Positions 5,305-14,800 are shown, counted from the stretch's first letter. The stretch: DNA of 64,000 nt from an uncultured Pseudomonadota bacterium (GCA_963727035.1 CAVSEY010000001.1:9362-73361), one strand, 5' to 3'. Notes: generated by a model not told the origin, from the letters alone. Numbers and translations are program-made.

Positions 5305-5410
5305 ACTGCGCACTTTAATTGACGCAAGGGCGCCCAACGTTGCCCTTCGCGAGCGGTTTCATGGACTGTTCCCGCACCGCAACGGCGAGCGCCGTCATCG
5401 CGCGGAGCGT

Positions 5411-5464
5411 CCGCGACGAAGCGATCCACCTTGCGGGCGGGTCGCCATTTGGATCGCTTCGCGG
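5411..5464. repeat. REP/MITE-like imperfect palindrome
   Basis: Arms ccgcga(cga)agcgatcca ... tggatcgcttcgcgg around a loop of about 21 nt. A degenerate relative lies at about 5860..5905, and the motif gctcgc[ag]atga recurs at 3630, 5503 and 5910. Confidence 0.5.
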
Positions 5465-5516
5465 AACCCGTCATCGGAACGGCTGAAAGCCGGATCCGTT
5501 GGCTCGCGATGACGGC

Positions 5517-5747
5517 CTAAAATTTGAAGTTTTTCTTGAGAATGTCGGCGAGTTGCCGCGCGGAGGCCTCATCCAGCTGAAAAGTCTGGCTCTTTTTTCC
5601 AGGAAATTCGCGCGAAGAGCGTCCGTAACTATCGAATTGAATGAAACGACGGCCATCGCGTTCAAAAAAGGAAAAGGTTGCCTCGGCTTCGTCATGGATC
5701 GAATTCCGCTCCATGCTATTTTCGATAAAGGATTTTATCAGAGCCAT
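5517..5747 (-). CDS. hypothetical small protein (76 aa), low-GC
   Basis: ORF MALIKSFIENSMERNSIHDEAEATFSFFERDGRRFIQFDSYGRSSREFPGKKSQTFQLDEASARQLADILKKNFKF. Its composition is protein-like and unlike the surrounding GC-shadow ORFs. I could assign no family with confidence. Confidence 0.5.
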   Translation of the reverse strand: MALIKSFIENSMERNSIHDEAEATFSFFERDGRRFIQFDSYGRSSREFPGKKSQTFQLDEASARQLADILKKNFKF

Positions 5748-5956
5748 CAGAAACGCTCCCGAACCCCACGAATCAAATCAATCTCTATTCTGCAAATCTC
5801 CGATCGCACTTTCAAGCAGCGCTTTTGCCTTTCCGTTCGCGGACGCCGTTATTGCGACGAGCGCCGGGGACGAAGCAATCCACGCCGCGGGCCGCCAGCG
5901 ACATGGATCACCTCGGTGCGCTCGCGATGAAGGTTGGAGCCCGAAACACACGACCA

Positions 5957-5988
5957 GGAAAATCGGCGGCGCGATGGCCGCCGATTTA
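5957..5988 (-). terminator. intrinsic terminator downstream of the split islet gene
   Basis: It has the same 9-bp stem ATCGGCGGC / GCCGCCGAT as the terminator at 3669..3692. The minus-strand reading is followed by TTTTCC. It lies about 220 nt past the stop at 6208. Confidence 0.5.
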
Positions 5989-6207
5989 TGCAATTGGTAT
6001 CATGTCCCCGTAATTCGTAATTCGGGCTTTCTGCCGGTCGCGAAACCGCCGCGTCGCCAGCGTGGCGGAAGGCAAGGATTGCGAAAGTCGATACGTGAGT
6101 TGATGACGTCGGGGGTGGAATATCCCTTGCCGACGGGGACTTGGCCGAGGCGGCGGCGAAAATGGCCCACCTGCAGTAGTGGCGCCCGATCACGTAGCCC
6201 CGCCGAT

Positions 6208-7279
6208 TTATCGCCATCTTTTCGCCTTTTTGCTTCGACGATCGTCCTTTCCGATCTGTCGCACCAACTCGTCCGAGTTTAGACTTAAGCCGAGGCTTGC
6301 AATTGCGTTCTTTGCAGCACTTAAAATGGCTAGGCGGTCTTTGGATTCAGATTGGCTCCAGTATACACGCCACATCAGGTGCGTGGCGATGTTCATTTGG
6401 AAAAAATATGATTTTGGCAGTGACCGCAGGGCAATGGATAAAGCTTTCTCGCCTGCTTCTGAGTCGATATCTATCAGCCAAATGCATTTTATAACATTCG
6501 CTAGCTTGCCATCAACCCTTGTATTCTGAAGCGTTCTAGAAAGAACCTTGTGATGCGCCAATTCGCACAATTGCGCCGAGATGAATCGATACGGCCAGCT
6601 AAACGTCGAGAATTCCAGTATCTCAACTAGTGTCGTGATAAGGCGTTTCGTGTCTTCCGCCCCGGCATTGTCATCTTTATTGGTTAGCCTTTCGATTAGT
6701 TCGGTGTCGTTTACGACCTTTTCTTTAATTTCGTCAAAATTAAAAGCCAGCATCTGCGCGGTCAAATGATGAAGCAAGTGCGAAGCGAGTGTGGCTATTC
6801 GAGTGGCCAAATCAATCTTTACATCCTTGACAAGGTGTTCTGAGCCAGAGCCTAGGAGTATTAGGGCAAGGTACCAATCGCCTATGGCAGAGCTAAGGTC
6901 CTTAATGTCCTTGAAGTTATCAGTTACGCGCTTTTTAATGTCGTCTCCGGTTTTTCCGACCTTTTCGCGTACTTCATCAGCAGCATCGAGCAGTCTTTGT
7001 TTCTTTTTCGCGCCGCCTCTTCCGCTATGAACCTCGTCGATCGCATTTTCCAACCGCTTTTCAAGCGCGGCCAGGCGGGCAGGTTGCCTTAGCCACGCAG
7101 GACGGACTTCGTCGGTCATGAGAATGTTTTTGGTATCGTCAACCGCGTATTGGGCGATTGCGAGGTCTAACCGCTTGCGCAAGCGATTGACGATTTCGAG
7201 ATCTGGCCCAATTTCACAGTATAGGTCAAACGTTGAGTCATCGAATTCGCCATCTGTCACCTGAAAATATGCTTTTGCT
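6208..7279 (-). pseudogene. C-terminal fragment (about 353 aa) of the IS-interrupted PNP-domain fusion protein
   Basis: Track ORF 6208..7296. From ...KAYFQVTDGEFDD onward it continues the frame of the upstream fragment once the IS is removed. It is helical and charged, with no recognisable motif, and is low-GC. Confidence 0.8.
7271..7279. repeat. 9-bp target-site duplication (left copy) of the IS4-family element
   Basis: GCTTTTGCT lies directly outside the left inverted repeat. An identical copy is at 8545..8553. Confidence 0.85.
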
Positions 7280-8544
7280 CTCAGCGTTCCCCTCATTTTC
7301 AGATGATGCCAAAAGCCTCGGAAAACACGCGATTTTCGCGTAGGAGTTGCTGATATCGCTCAATGAGGGGCTTGAGTCTTTCGTCCGGCATGTTGGGGAT
7401 GAGTTCGTAAAGCAGGCATCCCTGGCGAAACAGGGAATGAACGCGTCGCTTGGCGGTGCTGGTTCTCAACTGCCGGTCCATTCCGAGGCTTTCGCCAGCG
7501 GCGCCCAATACCGTCAGCAGCATGATGGCGAAAGCGTTGAGCAGCAACAGGCGATCTCGGCGCTGCGGGTCATCGATCCTCAGCGTGCTCATGCCCATTC
7601 CAAAGCGAAGGTCCTTGCTGTCCCGGAAGCTGGGCTCGATGGTCCACCTTTTCGAGTACAGATTGACGATCTGCGCCGCAGAGAGCGCGCCATCGCTGGC
7701 GGCAAGATGCCAGGCTTCCTTCATGCCCGAGGCTTTCACGCATACGACCGCCCCGACCTTCTGGCGGGCGGCGGAGATTTCGGCGTCGCGCAATTTCCGC
7801 GCTCGTCCGCCCTTGCCGACCCAATCGCCGGCTTCGCGCGTTTCGCCATCGGCGGCCCTGACATGGGTGCTGGAGCGAAAGCGGATGACATATTGAAAGC
7901 CAAGGGCGTCGAGGAATTCGAACAGCTTGACGTCGCCAAAGCCGCGGTCGGCCAGAATGGTCGCGGTCACCCCCTCGGGCAGCAGCGCCTTTAATCGGGC
8001 CAGGCACAAATCCTCGAAATCGTTGCGCTGGTCCTTCAATTCGTCCTTGTCGACGGTCAGCCAAAGCAGCGGCGTCGCCCTGCCGTGGTTCGTGACGAGA
8101 TGCAGCGCAAGCGTGCACTGGTTGTCGCGATCGAAATCCGTCCAATCCATCGCCACGACGATCTCGCGGCGCTCTCCGACGACCTCGGCGATCCAAGACC
8201 CGAACAAGTCCCAAGGCGCCACGCCCGAGTTGCTGAGCAACCGGTCGACCTGTTTGATCGCCGACTTGGCGATCAAGCCACGCGCTGTGGCCAGAGCCTG
8301 TCCAATCAAGGAAACAGCGAGCGCCGCTCCGGTCATCACCCCGAGCGTGCCGTTGGCCAGCGACAGGATGCGCTTGGCATGCAGATCGTCGCCGAACACG
8401 CGCTTCAAAAATTCCTGAATGAAATCAAATCGCTCCTTCGACGCGCGCATGGCTCCCCCTGCCGGCTGATTCTCCGTCCTACAGCTCGGGGATAACGAAA
8501 ATTTAGGCTTTTCCAAGTCGCGCAAAAATGGGGGGATTCATGAG
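7280..8544 (-). mobile_element. IS4-family insertion sequence (1265 bp)
   Basis: Terminal inverted repeats ctcagcgttcccctcatttt (7280..7299) and the reverse complement of 8525..8544, ctcatgaatccccccatttt, match at 15 of 20 positions. It carries one DDE transposase and is flanked by a 9-bp direct repeat. Confidence 0.85.
7299..8450 (-). CDS. IS4-family DDE transposase
   Basis: Start MRASKERFDFIQEFL... with RBS AGGGGGA. DDE-type landmarks are DWTDF, ADRGF and YSKRWTIEPSFRDSK. The stop lies inside the left inverted repeat. Confidence 0.85.
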   Translation of the reverse strand: MRASKERFDFIQEFLKRVFGDDLHAKRILSLANGTLGVMTGAALAVSLIGQALATARGLIAKSAIKQVDRLLSNSGVAPWDLFGSWIAEVVGERREIVVAMDWTDFDRDNQCTLALHLVTNHGRATPLLWLTVDKDELKDQRNDFEDLCLARLKALLPEGVTATILADRGFGDVKLFEFLDALGFQYVIRFRSSTHVRAADGETREAGDWVGKGGRARKLRDAEISAARQKVGAVVCVKASGMKEAWHLAASDGALSAAQIVNLYSKRWTIEPSFRDSKDLRFGMGMSTLRIDDPQRRDRLLLLNAFAIMLLTVLGAAGESLGMDRQLRTSTAKRRVHSLFRQGCLLYELIPNMPDERLKPLIERYQQLLRENRVFSEAFGII

Positions 8545-8553
8545 GCTTTTGCT
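8545..8553. repeat. 9-bp target-site duplication (right copy) of the IS4-family element
   Basis: GCTTTTGCT, identical to 7271..7279. Confidence 0.85.
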
Positions 8554-10574
8554 AGCTCATTTTCTTTCGAAAGGGCGGTAGCTAGCAAATATTTTTCGAT
8601 GAACGGCAAGGCAAAGCGAACTCTATCGTTTGCAAATGTCAATATGCCTTTCGCGACGAAATCGTTTACGAACAAAAGCGGGTCTATATCAAAGTCGTAA
8701 ATGTCAGCAAAATTTCGAGTGTAATCAATAAGTTCTGATTGCGTAAATGATGCTTTTTCTACATTGAGCTTAACCGTTAACTTTCGCAAAAAGGTGGTCC
8801 TAGTCGTTCTATTCAATTGAACTTTAGCGGTATCACCTGCGACAACGAAGCTTAAAAATCCATCGGTCGCCAGTTGGATTAATTCTGACCGGCGATTCGC
8901 TTGTAAAAGCTTTTGCAGACTGTCTTTTGATATCCCTGCGAAGTAGGTGGGGTGAGCAGAGAGATTAAAACGTTCAAACGTTTTGCTAAGTTTTAATGAA
9001 ATTACCTCCGATTCCATCTCCGTCATATCAAAATTTAATCTCACAAAATTTGTTAATTGCATAAATGAGACATTGGTAATCTCAAATGCTTCAGCTCCGG
9101 TGCTGACTAAAAAATCGCCTTCGGTTATGAGGTCACCTTGATTTTTGGTTATGAACACAAATCGCGCATCCACATTTTCGCGGAATTGTTTGATAAGAAA
9201 TTCTTTCTTGGTCTGGTTTGCAAGTGGTATGCCGTCGATCACGAAAACCGGCTGTATTCCGGACTGGGTTGTGATGCCGTCGACACTGGTTTGAGCGCTA
9301 TGCGTCAACGTGTGCTTTGGCGGCCTGATGTCGTCGCCGTTGACGACAATTGGCACGAGTTGTTTCTGGTTTACGACGACTGTTAGAAGTTCATTTGCGA
9401 TTACCCATGGTAAGCTATCGTCGGGATAATTTCTATCTAGACTAAAAAGTGTAACACGATGACTTATTATCGCGTCAACGATTTCAACCGGAGTTTGCGC
9501 GGTTGGCTTGTTGCCGATCAAACCGTGCTTGAAATGTCTAGCTCTAGGAAGGGGTAATTTATATCCCTTGTTTATCAATCGATAAGCGTGCGATAGCTCG
9601 CGGAGCTTTGCGTCGATTTCGTTATTGATGTTGTCAATGATCGTGACGAGTGATGGCTGAACTGACGGGACCGCTGTTTGTTGCGGAAGGGTGAGCTGCG
9701 GTTGTTCATATTGTCTTCTGCCGAGGATGAATTCTTTGACATGCGGATTCAGTAGTTGCGCCTTCAGAAAAGATGACGCGTTTTGCGCTGCCATTTTTCT
9801 TGTAATGCCGCCCGTCGTCTTTTCAAGTTCAGCTTTACCGACGGCTAAATCGGATATTCCTCGTATGGCAATCGCCGGGATTCGCCGAGTTTTAGCCTCA
9901 TCAAAGACGCCTCCTGACTCGGTTTCAATTGCGAGCACCTTTCGGCTCGCGTCTTTGAGGCTTGCGTTGTAATCGCTGCTTTCTGAGACGGCGCCGCAGG
10001 CGATCGTACCGCCCATGCTTTTCGGTTCGGCCAGCACGCTAATTATGTCGCGGCCCTTCGATTGCGGAAGCTTTGCAATTTCCGATTGCAGCGCGATTTT
10101 TTGTTTTGCTTGCCATTCCTGATGGATATTTTCGATATTCGGGCGCGTTCGCAAGAAGTTAAATGCCGCGGTTAGCGTATTGGGCGTCTCATAATATTTT
10201 GGAAAAAACTTCAGCGTAGCTTTGTCGTCTCCGTCGGATGCTTTCGCATTATCGAGAACGTCCAGAATTTCTCCCGTATAGCACACGTCACAAAGGGAAA
10301 GGTCTTTGGATAGCGCTCCAGCAATACCAAGGCATACAACGATCCCAACATCAAATTCATCCGTAATTGTTCGGAGCGCCTTTTCCGAAGATGGTCGGCC
10401 CATTTCGAAGGCTTGAACTGCGATGATACGGAGATCAGGATCGGGGGAATCCATTTCGTACCGCCAATATAGAGGCGTACTATAATCTTTTCTCCACGGG
10501 AATTGCGATCTAAATTCCTTGAGCTCTTCCTCTAGCGGAATAACGATAGCTATATCAAAATACTCGCGCGACAT
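8545..10574 (-). pseudogene. N-terminal fragment (677 aa) of the IS-interrupted protein: PNP_UDP/MTA-nucleosidase-like domain plus a degenerate STAND-like region
   Basis: Track ORF 8538..10574. The last Ser codon and the stop are supplied by the IS end. The N-terminal 285 aa carry DIAIVIPLEEE, GIAGAL, LAIETESGGV and IAIRGISDLA (nucleoside phosphorylase/nucleosidase fold). Further on there are VFVIDGIP and FVFITKN but no Walker A motif. The fragment is low-GC. Confidence 0.8.
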
Positions 10575-10782
10575 TTATTCGGTGCCCCGTGTTTTGTCAG
10601 TGTGCCGAAGCGCTTCACTTGTGAAGGGTCGTCAAATGAGCGTCCCGTGGTCGTGGATGGTTCCATAAATAAGAAAAAGGCATTTAACGTGTGTCTGCCT
10701 AATTCCCGGAGGATTACAGCCAAAGGCGAGAGTAACGACTTTTTTGTAGACGGGCACATCGTTGCCGCCTTAGTTTTCTGCC

Positions 10783-13700
10783 TCAACTACACCCCGTCGT
10801 CGCCCCACAGGTATCGCACTTCAAACACGTCCCATTGCGCACCAGCGTAAAATTCGCGCACTCAGGACACGCCTCGCCGATATAGCCTTTCATCCGCGCT
10901 TCGGCCCTTTTGTCGAGGGCTTCGTCGGGGAGTTTGGTTGGCGGGGTCCAGGTCAGGGTGTCGAGCAGGCTGGCGGCGTCGGGCTCGACCAGGGCGCCGG
11001 GTTTCAGCGCCGTGGCGCCGAGGCTGACCACTGCGACCGTCGGCGTTTTGGTCGGCTCGGGCGTGTTGGACTGGACCAGCATCAGCTTGTCGGCTTTCGA
11101 GCGCACAAAACCGCGCGAGACGAAGCGCGAGGTCGGCGAGGGCTGGCCCGAAGACGGCGCGCGGCCCTGGTCGTCGCCTTTGCCCATCGCCGCATGGCCG
11201 ATGTCGGACGGGTCGACATGGGCGAGGTCGTTGCGGCCGAGATAGGAAATCGCCAGTTCGCGGAACACATAATCAAGGATCGAGGTCGCGTTCTTGATCG
11301 CGTCATTGCCCTGCACGAAACCCGCCGGCTCGAAGCGGGTGAAGGTGAAGGCGTCGACATATTCCTCCAGCGGCACGCCATATTGCAGGCCGACCGAAAT
11401 GGCGATGGCGAAATTGTTCATCAGGCTGCGGAAGGCGGCGCCTTCCTTGTGCATGTCGATGAAAATCTCGCCGATGCGGCCGTCCTGATATTCGCCGGTG
11501 CGCAAATAGACCTTGTGGCCGCCGACCACGGCTTTCTGGGTATAGCCTTTTCTGCGGTCGGGCAGCTTTTCGCGCTCGCGCCTGCGCTCGACGCGCTCGA
11601 TCACCCGCTCGACGATGCGCTCGGCGATCTGGGTCGTGCGCGCCGGATGGTTCTGGGCCATGAAAGCGTCGAAAGCGTCCTCGTCCTCCGCCTCGTCATC
11701 GGCGATGAGCTGGGAATTGAGCGGCTGCGACAGTTTGGAGCCGTCGCGATAAAGCGCATTGGCCTTGATCGCGAGGCGCCAGGACAACAGATAGGCCGCC
11801 TTGCAATCCTCGACCGAGGCGTCGTTGGGCATGTTGATGGTTTTCGAGATCGCGCCCGAGATGAAAGGCTGCGACGCCGCCATCATGCGGATGTGGCTCT
11901 CGACCGAGAGATAGCGTTTTCCGGTGCGCCCGCAGGGATTGGCGCAGTCGAAAACGGGCAGATGTTCGATTTTAAGATGCGGCGCGCCTTCAAGCGTCAT
12001 CGCGCCGCAGACATGGATATTGGCGGCGTCGATCTCTGCCCTGGTGAAGCCGAGGAAGGAGAGCAGTTCGAAACTCGGATCGTCGAGCTTTTCGGCCGGG
12101 ACTTTCAGCTCGTTGACCAAATAAGTCGGAGCCGAGGCCGAATTTGTTGAAGACGAATTTGATATCAAAAGTTCCCGGCAGGGCCTGGGCGATCTCCGCC
12201 AGTTTTTCCGCCGAAAAACCTTTTGACGCGAGAGTCGTCTCGTTGACGCCCGGCGCCTGTTTCAGACTGCCGTGGCCAACCGCGAAAGCCTCGATCTCGG
12301 CGATCTGGGCTTCGCCATAGCCGAGCGCCCGCAGGCCTTCCGGCACGGCGCGGTTGATGATCTTGAAATAGCCGCCGCCCGCGAGTTTCTTGAATTTCAC
12401 CAGCGCGAAATCGGGCTCGATGCCGGTGGTGTCGCAATCCATCACCAGGCCGATGGTGCCGGTCGGGGCGACCACACTGACCTGGGCGTTGCGATAGCCG
12501 TGCTTTTCGCCAAGCTCCAAAGCCTTGTCCCAGGCCGCGCGGGCGTGGACGATCAGGTCCTGATCGGGGCAGGAGGCGGCGTCGAGCGCGACCGGCGTCA
12601 CCGCGAGGCCTTCATAGCCATCGCTCTGGCTATGGGCGGCGCGGCGGTGGTTGCGGATGACCCGCAGCATGGCGCCGGAATTTTCCGCATAGCGCGCGAA
12701 GGCGCCGCGCTCTTTCGCCATTTCCGCCGAGGTCGCATAGCACACGCCGGTCATGATCGCCGACAGCGCGCCGCACAGGCTGCGGCCTTCGGGCAAGTCA
12801 TAGGCAAGGCCCGAGGACATCAGCAAGCCGCCGATATTGGCGAAGCCGAGGCCGAGCGTGCGGTAGTCGTAAGAAAGCTGGGCGATGGCGCGCGAGGGGA
12901 ATTGCGCCATCAGCACCGAGATTTCCAGCACGACGGTCCACAGCCGCACCGCATGTTCATAAGCCGCGACGTCGAACTTTTTGGTCTGCGGATCGCGGAA
13001 CTGCAACAGGTTCAGCGAGGCGAGATTGCAGGCGGTGTCGTCCAGGAACATATATTCGGAGCACGGATTGGAGGCGCGGATTTCGCCGCCCGCCGGGCAG
13101 GTGTGCCAGTCGTTGATCGTGGTGTGGAATTGCAGGCCGGGATCGGCCGAGGCCCAGGCGGCATAGCCGATCTTTTCCCACAGTTCGCGGGCGGCAAGAG
13201 TCTTGGCGGCCTTGCCGTCGGTGCGGCGGATCAGGCTCCACGGCCCATCCTGCTCGACCGCGCGCAGAAAACCGTCGGTGACGCGCACCGAATTGTTGGA
13301 GTTCTGGCCGGAGACGGTCAGATAGGCTTCCGACTGCCAGTCGGTGTCATATTCGGGCAGGTCGAATTCGCGGAAACCCTGTTTGGCATATTGGATCACG
13401 CGCTTGATGAAACTGTCCGGGCACTGGGCGCGGCGGGCGAGCTTGATCTCGCGTTTCAGGGCGGGGTTCTTTTCCGGGTTGAAGCAATCGTCGCCCGAGC
13501 CCTCGCAATTCACCGCGGCCTTGAACACCGCCTTCATGTGCTTGCGCATGATTTTCGAGCCGGCGACCAGAGCCGCGACTTTTTCTTCCTCGCGCACCTT
13601 CCAGTCGATGAAGGATTCGATGTCGGGGTGGTCGACGTCCACCACCACCATCTTGGCGGCGCGCCGCGTGGTGCCGCCGGACTTGATCGCGCCCGCCGCG

Positions 13701-14491
13701 CGGTCGCCGATCTTCAGGAAAGACATCAGGCCGGAGGATTTTCCGCCGCCGGAGAGCTTTTCGTTTTCCGAGCGCAGCGACGAGAAATTGGCGCCGGTGC
13801 CGGAGCCATATTTGAACAGGCGCGCCTCGCGCACCCACAGGTCCATGATGCCGCCCTCGTTGACGAGGTCGTCCTTGACCGACTGGATGAAACAGGCGTG
13901 GGGCTGCGGGTGCTCATAGGCGGATTCGGAGGCCTTGAGCACGCCGGTGTCGTAGTCGACGAAGAAATGGCCCTGGCCGGGGCCGTCGATGCCATAGGCC
14001 CAGTGCAGGCCGGTGTTGAACCATTGCGGCGAATTGGGCGCGGCGATCTGGCGCGCCAGCATGAAGCACATCTCGTCGAAAAAGGCCTGGGCGTCTTCTT
14101 CCGTGTTGAAATAGCCGCCCTTGAAGCCCCAATAGGTCCAGGCGCCGGCGAGGCGGTCGAACACCTGCTTGGCCGAAATCTCGCCGCCGAAGCGCTCCTT
14201 TTCGGGGAGCCGGGCCAGAGCCTCCTCGTCGGGGACCGAGCGCCACAGGAAGGAGGGGATGGAATTTTCCTCGACGCGCTTGAGCCGGGCGGGGACCCCG
14301 GCCTTGCGGAAATATTTTTGCGCCAGCACGTCGCAGGCGACCTGGCTCCAGGCGGCGGGAACCTCGATGCCGTTCTGGGAAAAGACGGTCGAGCCGTCCG
14401 GGTTGCGGATTTCGCTCTTGGTCTCCCGGAACTCGATGGTTTGATAGGGAGACTGTCCCGCCTTGGTGTAGAGCCGCTCGATCCGCATCAT
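10783..14491 (-). pseudogene. nrdJ: class II (adenosylcobalamin-dependent) ribonucleotide reductase NrdJ, split by an apparent 1-nt frameshift near 12117..12124
   Basis: Track ORFs 11990..14629 and 10783..12168 overlap in different frames. The N-part starts MMRIERLYTKAGQSPYQTIEFR... (ATG 14491, RBS GGGGGA) and contains NPCSEY. The C-part carries [14 protein letters not shown]...[42 protein letters not shown] and a C-terminal Cys cluster. The junction reads ...[11 protein letters not shown] / [11 protein letters not shown]. Confidence 0.85.
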
Positions 14492-14800
14492 TTCCCCCGA
14501 TTTGCGTCTGCCGCGACGCTTTTCAATAAGCTTGCCCGAATTCGTGAACCAACGCGCGAGAGCGAAGGCGCCGCATGAATCGCCGTTCCAGGGAAAGCCC
14601 CGGCCGGACGAGACGAACGCCTTGGTCACGCGACATGATTTGAAAGCTGCACGCGAACGCGGCTTTGGGGCGCGCGTTCGTCACTCCCCGGCGGGCCGTT
14701 GGGCCGCGCGCCCCTCGTCGAAATCGGGCTAAAGCCCTGCAACTTCGAGGCGGCCGGCGACGGCGCCGGGATGTCATGATTTAAATCCAGCTCGCGCGAA

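Follow-up and report, generated by a model that had tools for sequence, protein, structure and literature searches.

What kind of gene lies interrupted within a 64,000-nucleotide stretch of DNA from an uncultured Pseudomonadota bacterium (GCA_963727035.1, CAVSEY010000001.1:9362-73361; the whole stretch is called the window hereafter), and what might it have done before a mobile element split it? Between positions 6,208 and 10,574, two minus-strand open reading frames (ORFs; 8538..10574, 678 aa, and 6208..7296, 362 aa) flank an insertion sequence (IS), and an earlier note, made from the sequence alone, had taken them to be the halves of a single gene of about 1030 codons. We consider it probable, though well short of certain, that the locus is a recently IS-inactivated, uncharacterised and horizontally mobile single-gene conflict system (defence or abortive infection) with an Avs/NLR-like build. 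We favour this reading because a catalytic effector, a NOD module and a helical C-terminus are combined in one polypeptide, and because the gene is accessory, mobile and AT-rich, undergoes allele replacement at a hotspot and is frequently inactivated. The coordinates of its parts are collected in Table 1.

The element between the two halves encodes a 408-aa DDE transposase that matched the NCBIfam IS4-family model NF033591 (225.7 bits against a cut-off of 152, E 8e-67) and Pfam DDE_Tnp_1 (E 2.4e-15). Its terminal inverted repeats, CTCAGCGTTCCCCTCATTTT and CTCATGAATCCCCCCATTTT, are imperfect (about 20 bp, 15/20 identical), and a perfect direct repeat of 9 bp, GCTTTTGCT, borders it on both sides. 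With an IS4-type DDE transposase, inverted repeats and a 9-bp target duplication, the element is an IS4-family insertion sequence; it occurs once in the window, and no near-identical copy was found among the PLSDB plasmids. Deleting the IS together with one copy of the repeat yielded a 3093-nt ORF with no internal stop, encoding exactly 1030 aa, and the restored junction reads ...LSKENELAKAYFQVTDGEFDD (...NELAKAYFQV...). The junction region aligned without gaps to 109 full-length homologues, with A675, Y678 and F679 at least 90% conserved, which cannot be attributed to chance; more than 100 proteins of 1013-1060 aa, at 32-43% identity, covered 97-100% of the restored protein in alignment. The proposed split of an in-frame gene by an IS was therefore borne out by the 9-bp duplication, the stop-free ORF and the end-to-end alignment with homologues, and every motif that the note had quoted was found in the rebuilt protein (DIAIVIPLEEE, residues 7-17; GIAGAL, 83-88; LAIETESGGV, 214-223; IAIRGISDLA, 235-244; SLDRNYPDDS, 378-387; VFVIDGIP, 443-450; FVFITKN, 472-478). 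Because both gene halves are undecayed, we regard the insertion as real and recent; the window copy is a dead gene, inactivated by the IS. The insertion point at codon 674 lies at the C-terminal edge of the winged-helix domain, on its boundary with the putative sensor, and the ORFs left after insertion encode the PNP and NOD parts (678 aa) and the sensor part (362 aa). The ATG and first five codons of the latter ORF derive from the IS terminal inverted repeat (7280..7296); the sensor fragment could in principle be translated independently from this IS-borne ATG, which may also be a coincidence.

Table 1. Parts of the disrupted gene and of the inserted element, in window coordinates
Feature	Coordinates	Strand	Remarks
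5' part of disrupted gene	8554..10574	-	codons 1-673 and 2 nt of codon 674; PNP, linker, nucleotide-binding-like, helical and winged-helix domains
3' part of disrupted gene	6208..7279	-	last nt of codon 674 to stop; all-helical putative sensor, residues 676-1030 = 6211..7275
IS4-family insertion sequence	7280..8544	-	1265 bp; imperfect ~20-bp terminal inverted repeats; transposase ORF 7299..8525
Target-site duplication, copy 1	7271..7279		GCTTTTGCT
Target-site duplication, copy 2	8545..8553		GCTTTTGCT
PNP_UDP_1 / MTAN-like nucleosidase domain (residues 1-290)	9705..10574	-	Pfam E 9.5e-10; Foldseek MTAN E 4e-11, TMt 0.75-0.81
Catalytic equivalents E17, E219, D242	10524-10526, 9918-9920, 9849-9851	-	assigned by motif mapping
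Nucleotide-binding-like alpha/beta domain (residues 341-515)	9030..9554	-	predicted ASCE topology; AlphaFold2 secondary structure, Foldseek
Loop at Walker A position, LDRNYPDDSLPW (residues 379-390)	9405..9440	-	family consensus LPRxYPDxSLPW
Strand at Walker B position, PVFVID (residues 442-447)	9234..9251	-	D or E at 447 in 92/110
Helical domain (residues 516-605)	8760..9029	-	HPTYFAGIP, ANRRxE and LSRTTRxxFL motifs
Winged-helix domain (residues 606-673)	8556..8759	-	Pfam nSTAND_NTPase4 (PF24406) above gathering score

The family to which this gene belongs is small and uniform. A first search returned 146 homologues at 35-43% identity, nearly all of about 1020-1045 aa, and a hidden Markov model (HMM) of the NOD module, run against 1.84 billion representative proteins, gave 251 matches at E<=1e-3, 183 of them at E<=1e-30; the best 150 of the 251 were family members only, and the ~68 weaker matches span E 1e-30 to 1e-3. 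Every full-length match to this profile begins near residue 300, the N-terminus always being ~300 aa long. Judged by sequence comparison, the architecture is fixed, and in sequence space the NOD module stands apart from the large STAND families. Shorter or longer matches (P0118, P0120, P0095, P0003 and P0048), considered as new architectures, turned out to be truncations or mis-called starts. Among 185,579 species-representative genomes, 51 loci came to light, with Alphaproteobacteria accounting for essentially all of them (Hyphomicrobiales, Sphingomonadales, Rhodobacterales, Rhodospirillales and Acetobacterales), and intact copies are present in isolates of Inquilinus ginsengisoli, Devosia crocina, Sphingomonas oligophenolica and Rhodopseudomonas telluris. 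An occurrence in Balneola (L027) was discarded as probably a mis-binned short contig, being 99.97% identical in nucleotides to a Nisaea locus (L045 10031..13367), and one in Bdellovibrionaceae (L015) as probably a mis-binned 4-kb contig, its protein being 86-89% identical to Rhodobacterales copies.

Several features mark the gene as horizontally mobile, with most copies lying on chromosomes. Its GC content in the window is 46.2%, compared with 62.7% in the flanks and 60.2% in the IS, in agreement with the low GC that the earlier note had remarked on; across the family the gene is poorer in GC than its flanks by a mean of 12 points, by more than 5 points in 37/49 loci and by 30 points in Inquilinus ginsengisoli, the largest deficit, and the low-GC tract is often the family gene alone. 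In the window (6208..14629) and in three related genomes (L003, L026 and L050, about 5400-13100 in each), the gene comes immediately after nrdJ on its downstream side. Although nrdJ is 76-82% identical in nucleotides among these four genomes, the alleles at this site share only 38-42% aa identity, show no similarity at the nucleotide level and have different downstream flanks, which on sequence grounds points to a lineage-specific replacement hotspot or an ancient polymorphism. Copies from different orders can be 57-59% identical, and those from different Rhodobacterales genera 88%; such likeness across orders and genera, set beside the divergence of the nrdJ-site alleles, indicates horizontal transfer.

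Disruption of the gene has recurred. A homologue in a Bauldia metagenome-assembled genome (MAG; L021 5668..8068) carries an insertion of ~2.4 kb near residue 870-890, whose ORFs we take, by eye, to be an IS1595-like transposase and a VapD-like protein, and it is a second independent mobile-element disruption in the family. The copy on an Acetobacter oryzifermentans plasmid (L052, NZ_CP011122, 8965..12020; GC 32.8%, flanks 53.9%), annotated as two hypothetical proteins, is not a natural two-gene version; it has a frameshift in the linker between PNP and NOD. L047 has an internal deletion, the L045 and L027 copies are split, and several copies from nanopore MAGs are fragmented; these last MAG cases may be sequencing errors. 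The suggestion that inactivation is a common fate of such genes was thus strengthened by independent cases, among them the Bauldia insertion, the Acetobacter frameshift and the L047 deletion.

We also assessed the neighbours of the homologues, taking the 138 genes within two genes on either side. Resolvases account for 10/138 and tyrosine integrases for 4, and plasmid partition genes and IS elements occur as well. At six loci (L018, L020, L023, L032, L033 and L035), a serine recombinase (resolvase) of ~190 aa is found next to the family gene at a distance of 130-300 bp, its side and orientation varying, an arrangement that hints at a small recombinase-linked mobile cassette. Defence genes in the same sample, given as raw counts within this range, comprised type I restriction-modification (3 related loci), DUF4062/NIR (2), mad5 (2), GT4-conflict-PNP (1) and a phospholipase effector (1); DUF4062 has been described as the NIR NADase effector (preprint 10.64898/2026.09.04.749371).

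A gene with these surroundings could instead be a conflict gene with no anti-phage role, perhaps a toxin-like module by which mobile elements secure addiction or compete (for example through anti-plasmid or anti-ICE action, or post-segregational stabilisation), with the sensor-switch-nucleosidase logic unchanged. The recombinases at the six loci, together with the adjoining integrases, IS elements and partition genes, would fit such a role, as would the solitary low-GC island and the Acetobacter plasmid copy, which lies among toxin-antitoxin modules (its neighbours are HsdR, BrnT, MazEF and IS5, IS66 and IS3 elements), and no family homologue was found in 50,697 phage records. Set against this are the lack of a cognate antitoxin or of a conserved partner gene, none having emerged among 830 clustered neighbour ORFs, and the mostly chromosomal location of the copies; moreover, the characterised tripartite NLR-like architectures sense invader proteins intracellularly, according to a survey of Avs proteins (PMC13581612). 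We therefore regard an addiction or competition module as unlikely, though it is the best surviving alternative to an anti-phage conflict system.

The N-terminal domain supplies the effector of the proposed conflict system. A full-length AlphaFold2 model built from 110 sequences (pLDDT 88.7, pTM 0.85) shows an alpha/beta PNP fold in residues 1-290, mostly at pLDDT >90. Pfam PNP_UDP_1 (PF01048) matched residues 8-271 (38.7 bits against a cut-off of 25.1, E 9.5e-10), and the best 50 Foldseek matches in the PDB were MTAN or futalosine hydrolase only (E 4e-11 to 4e-9, TMt 0.69-0.81), so that the closest solved structures are those of MtnN/Pfs and futalosine hydrolase. In profile and pairwise alignments, IPLEEEL, GIAG, AIETESGG and IRGISD align to the catalytic elements of MTAN. 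The equivalents of MTAN E12, E174 and D197, taken from an alignment with the Staphylococcus aureus enzyme, are E17 (at least 90% conserved), E219 and D242 (both invariant); the mapping also used an Escherichia coli MTAN sequence. The predicted PNP/MTA-SAH-nucleosidase fold was accordingly upheld by Pfam, Foldseek and AlphaFold2, with the GxAG and ExE motifs kept alongside the catalytic Glu/Glu/Asp triad. A water-activating Glu is, in established MTAN enzymology, the mark of a hydrolase, and because this residue is kept the domain is more probably a hydrolase than a phosphorylase. It differs from MTAN in its length (290 aa against ~230 aa), in a helical insert of ~45 residues (about 130-180) with the invariant W154, in the extra invariant basic residues R211, K247 and R259, and in being fused to ~740 further residues; its score against the NCBIfam MtnN model, 40 bits, lies far below the cut-off of 169.

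The closest relative found outside the family is a PNP-TIR fusion of 631 aa on Klebsiella plasmids, whose PNP domain is of the same subtype (25% identity over 282 aligned columns, E 5e-16) and has in common with the family the WQ insert and the K247/E251/R259 motif. PNP-TIR is a conflict-type architecture. It was also observed that this fusion (L053, K. quasipneumoniae plasmid NZ_CP080102, 5986..7881) occurs on 15 Klebsiella and Raoultella plasmids and adjoins a 1059-aa 'ATP-binding protein' and a response regulator; the locus could be part of another uncharacterised conflict system.

With such an N-terminus, the protein could also be a metabolic enzyme under regulation, its MTA/SAH-type or purine nucleosidase activity being controlled by a signal-sensing STAND-like module and serving nucleotide or methionine salvage or quorum signalling rather than immunity. 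Housekeeping MTANs are its best HMM and structural matches, the position downstream of nrdJ in four genomes would hint at nucleotide metabolism, and non-immune STAND proteins exist, MalT being among the Foldseek matches described below. A metabolic gene would nevertheless hardly be as rare as this one (51/185,579 species-representative genomes; 251 HMM matches in 1.84 billion proteins), as strongly atypical for its hosts in GC or as often broken; the nrdJ association is seen in a single lineage (4/~52 loci), where the alleles are as divergent as random family members, and the PNP subtype is that of the PNP-TIR fusion. We judge a metabolic role improbable, more so than an addiction module.

Between this nucleosidase domain and the C-terminus lies the most unusual part of the protein. 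Because Foldseek with the whole model returned MTAN matches only, residues 299-673 were modelled separately (pLDDT 88.9), and this model matched NOD2 (E 2e-7), NLRC4 (2e-6), ORC1/Cdc6, archaeal AAA+ ATPases, NLRP7, NAIP5 and MalT. In the AlphaFold2 model, the nucleotide-binding-like domain (NBD) runs beta1(374-378)-loop-alpha1(388-396)-beta2-alpha2-beta3(440-447)-alpha3-beta4(471-476)-alpha4-beta5; this predicted order corresponds to the ASCE P-loop topology, and a helical domain (HD) and a winged-helix domain (WHD) come after it. The STAND-like core that had been suggested from the sequence is therefore recognisable as an NBD-HD-WHD fold in the structural search. At the level of profiles, the 58-position Pfam model nSTAND_NTPase4 (PF24406) matched residues ~593-671 (33.4 bits, gathering score 27), and this winged-helix segment was the sole STAND profile match; no Pfam match to NACHT, NB-ARC or AAA_16 was obtained in the restored protein.

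The missing Walker A motif, noted earlier in the window copy, proved to be a property of the whole family. At the beta1 loop, none of 110 family members (0/110) has a Walker A, and the loop contains neither Gly nor Lys; [GA]xxxxGK[ST] is absent from the window protein and matches in 3/110 members, each time at an unrelated position. In its place stands a near-invariant YPD..S..W loop (Y383 in 109/110, P384 in 110/110, D385 in 105/110, W390 in 104/110). D or E occupies the Walker B position, 447, in 92/110 members and R or K the sensor-1 position, 477, in 101/110, both positions being assigned by topology. The helical domain is the most conserved region, with a mean pairwise identity of 64% (34-47% elsewhere); N560 and E564 are invariant, R561 and R562 near-invariant, and the HPTYFAGIP motif and R589/T591/R592 are also conserved. 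Ratios of non-synonymous to synonymous substitution (dN/dS) were estimated pairwise for six closely related pairs and are approximate, dS being near saturation; they were 0.06-0.09 across the four pairs with unsaturated dS and, by domain, 0.05-0.14 in the NBD and 0.01-0.02 in the helical domain. From this conservation and the low dN/dS, which bespeaks strong purifying selection, we conclude that the P-loop-less module is functional rather than decaying. That it is instead an inert relic, a dead-NTPase scaffold beside a toxin that is constitutively regulated or transcriptionally controlled with no sensor-switch, would account for the family-wide loss of Walker A and for the lack of a sequence-level match to any P-loop Pfam family, but is the least likely of the alternatives, given the near-invariance of the replacement loop, the conserved helical-domain residues (N560, R561/R562, E564 and R592) and dN/dS values that point to a conserved, specific function and not to drift. 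The loop lacks glycine and lysine and carries a conserved Asp, which makes ADP/ATP switching of the canonical kind unlikely.

The C-terminal domain (residues 676-1030, ~355 aa) is all-helical in the AlphaFold2 model, with long helices, and its invariant positions include W941 and W981; profile searches against Pfam and the PDB returned no sequence match. The model and the empty searches agree with the helical, motif-less C-terminus that had been described.

How might these parts work together in the proposed conflict system? We infer a defence role from architecture, mobility and context, and likewise infer the substrate, the oligomerisation and the trigger. The helical C-terminal domain would hold the protein in an autoinhibited state until an invader-derived cue is met, upon which the NBD-HD-WHD module (341-675) would change conformation and oligomerise, gathering the N-terminal MTAN-like PNP domains. 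Enzymes of the MTAN/PNP fold are obligate oligomers. The hydrolytic nucleosidase would thereby be switched on and, by analogy with Cap17 and DtcC, would deplete ATP/dATP or another nucleotide and arrest the infected cell; the effector is thus probably a nucleotide-depleting ATP nucleosidase. Because the conserved YPD..S..W loop stands in place of a P-loop, switching would probably be independent of the binding or hydrolysis of nucleoside triphosphates (NTPs) or use another ligand. The IS at codon 674 would uncouple the effector and NOD from the sensor.

Several observations weigh against this proposal. The C-terminal domain bears no sign of diversifying selection at the domain level (omega 0.04-0.12), and no effector swapping is seen within the family, unlike many Avs families. 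With no P-loop, canonical STAND switching cannot simply be assumed. In sequence score, the PNP domain is closer to the housekeeping MtnN model (40 bits) than to the PADLOC PN-superfamily CBASS effector model (24 bits, E 3e-6, a weak match). The window neighbours are housekeeping genes (a fatty-acid desaturase family protein, the class II ribonucleotide reductase NrdJ, LrgB and the Leu/Phe-tRNA protein transferase Aat), the defence-neighbour counts are raw, and no experimental data on any family member were found in the literature searched.

A further and more speculative possibility is that the family forms a separate class of NLR-like immune receptor whose nucleotide switch has given way to another device, with the YPD..S..W loop and the ANRR/RTTR arginines forming a pocket for a different ligand or with oligomerisation proceeding ligand-free; we hold this only tentatively. 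Such a YPD/ANRR/RTTR pocket might take, for example, a nucleoside, a signal derived from a nucleotide or a molecule of the invader. STAND censuses take P-loop NTPase domains as their seeds and may therefore have missed the family. The current view is that NLR/STAND receptors, in bacteria as in humans, are switched on by ADP/ATP exchange at the P-loop, and if the possibility were true, STAND-type immune activation could occur with no NTP binding. A family that keeps the whole NOD fold and replaces the Walker A loop would lend itself to asking whether receptors of this kind can dispense with the nucleotide switch or exchange it for another. From Alphaproteobacteria, a class with a poor showing in defence-system discovery, it would contribute a single-gene system of the PNP-type, nucleotide-depleting kind.

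Some further features of the surroundings were recorded. The window neighbours also include a beta-lactamase family protein, and no tRNA or Rfam element marking an integration site was found in the window. A 76-aa ORF (5517..5747, minus strand) about 460 bp downstream of the gene lies in a lower-GC tail and has no Pfam match; it was rejected as a conserved partner, its only similarity being a weak tblastn match (45 aa, 56%) downstream of the L050 homologue. The nrdJ gene of the window (10783..14629), which codes for a B12-dependent enzyme, is split into overlapping ORFs of 879 aa and 461 aa, and tblastn with the intact 1301-aa NrdJ of L003 placed a change from frame -1 to frame -2 near 12047-12093; it is either a pseudogene or an assembly error. 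The Devosia homologue is adjoined by a 944-aa GT4-conflict glycosyltransferase with a second PNP_UDP_1 domain (L019 6783..9617, minus strand). At two other loci, large ORFs homologous to each other (L007 13258..17094 and L039 13281..16262; about 1000-1280 aa) lie directly downstream of the family gene; neither matched Pfam, and they could be an unknown large protein or spurious ORFs in DNA of ~70% GC.

When the family was compared with known systems, none fitted, as the earlier note had anticipated: matches in PADLOC and NCBIfam were weak and below threshold. In PADLOC-DB v2 and NCBIfam 20.0 there was no match to an AVAST or NACHT model, and the PADLOC matches were confined to the PNP domain (among them a weak one to the defence candidate PDC-M60C, E 2e-7), apart from one spurious match. 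In CBASS and Detocs, Cap17-clade PNP domains act as ATP/dATP nucleosidases; such domains have also been noted as the N-terminal part of various Avs proteins, and in NLR-like proteins of eukaryotes (10.1101/2023.01.24.525353). With Cap17 (CBASS) and DtcC (Detocs), the family has in common the PNP_UDP_1 fold, the catalytic Asp in an (I/V)SD motif and the expected outcome, depletion of an essential nucleotide; the likeness is one of fold and of a weak profile match. Those effectors are activated by cyclic oligonucleotides (SAVED-type) or by phosphotransfer (receiver) and not by a fused NOD and sensor.

Resemblance to DS-8 (NCBIfam NF053861) and to nSTAND_NTPase4 is confined to ~60-80 residues: the winged-helix segment matches DS-8 positions 608-687 weakly (E 3e-4), at 18.5 bits against a cut-off of 790. 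DS-8 has a metallophosphatase effector and a NACHT domain, and a predicted ATPase residue is required for its defence (10.1101/2025.01.08.631726); for nSTAND4, no description was found in the literature searched. A precedent for a STAND immune receptor that is probably not an ATPase is KpAvs8, an Avs with degenerate Walker A/B motifs according to a figure legend of the Avs survey (PMC13581612, Extended Data Fig. 11). In Avs8 the degeneracy is reported for one homologue, EcAvs8 being canonical, whereas here the loss is family-wide and the replacement motif conserved. Eukaryotic PNP_UDP NLR-like proteins such as coral NLRN (Rousset et al., 2023) likewise combine a PNP effector, a NOD and a repeat or helical sensor. 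Unlike the family's loop, their NACHT or NB-ARC P-loops are canonical, and their sensors are of the ANK, TPR or WD40 type; no sequence relationship to them was detected. Fungal NLRs with PNP_UDP effector domains are known as well.

The nearest counterparts are the PNP-Avs proteins (Rousset et al., 2023; Avs survey, PMC13581612), which are likewise the products of accessory, horizontally transferred genes; in each, one chain begins with a PNP-fold effector, continues with an NBD-HD-WHD module and ends in an alpha-helical domain. The family differs from them in having a conserved YPDxSLPW loop instead of a Walker A, an effector that is fixed and not swapped, a sensor of only ~355 aa that is not TPR-like by Pfam, and a distribution restricted to Alphaproteobacteria. 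A PNP effector on an Avs/STAND protein has already been published (Rousset et al., 10.1101/2023.01.24.525353); what is unusual here is the conserved P-loop-less NOD.

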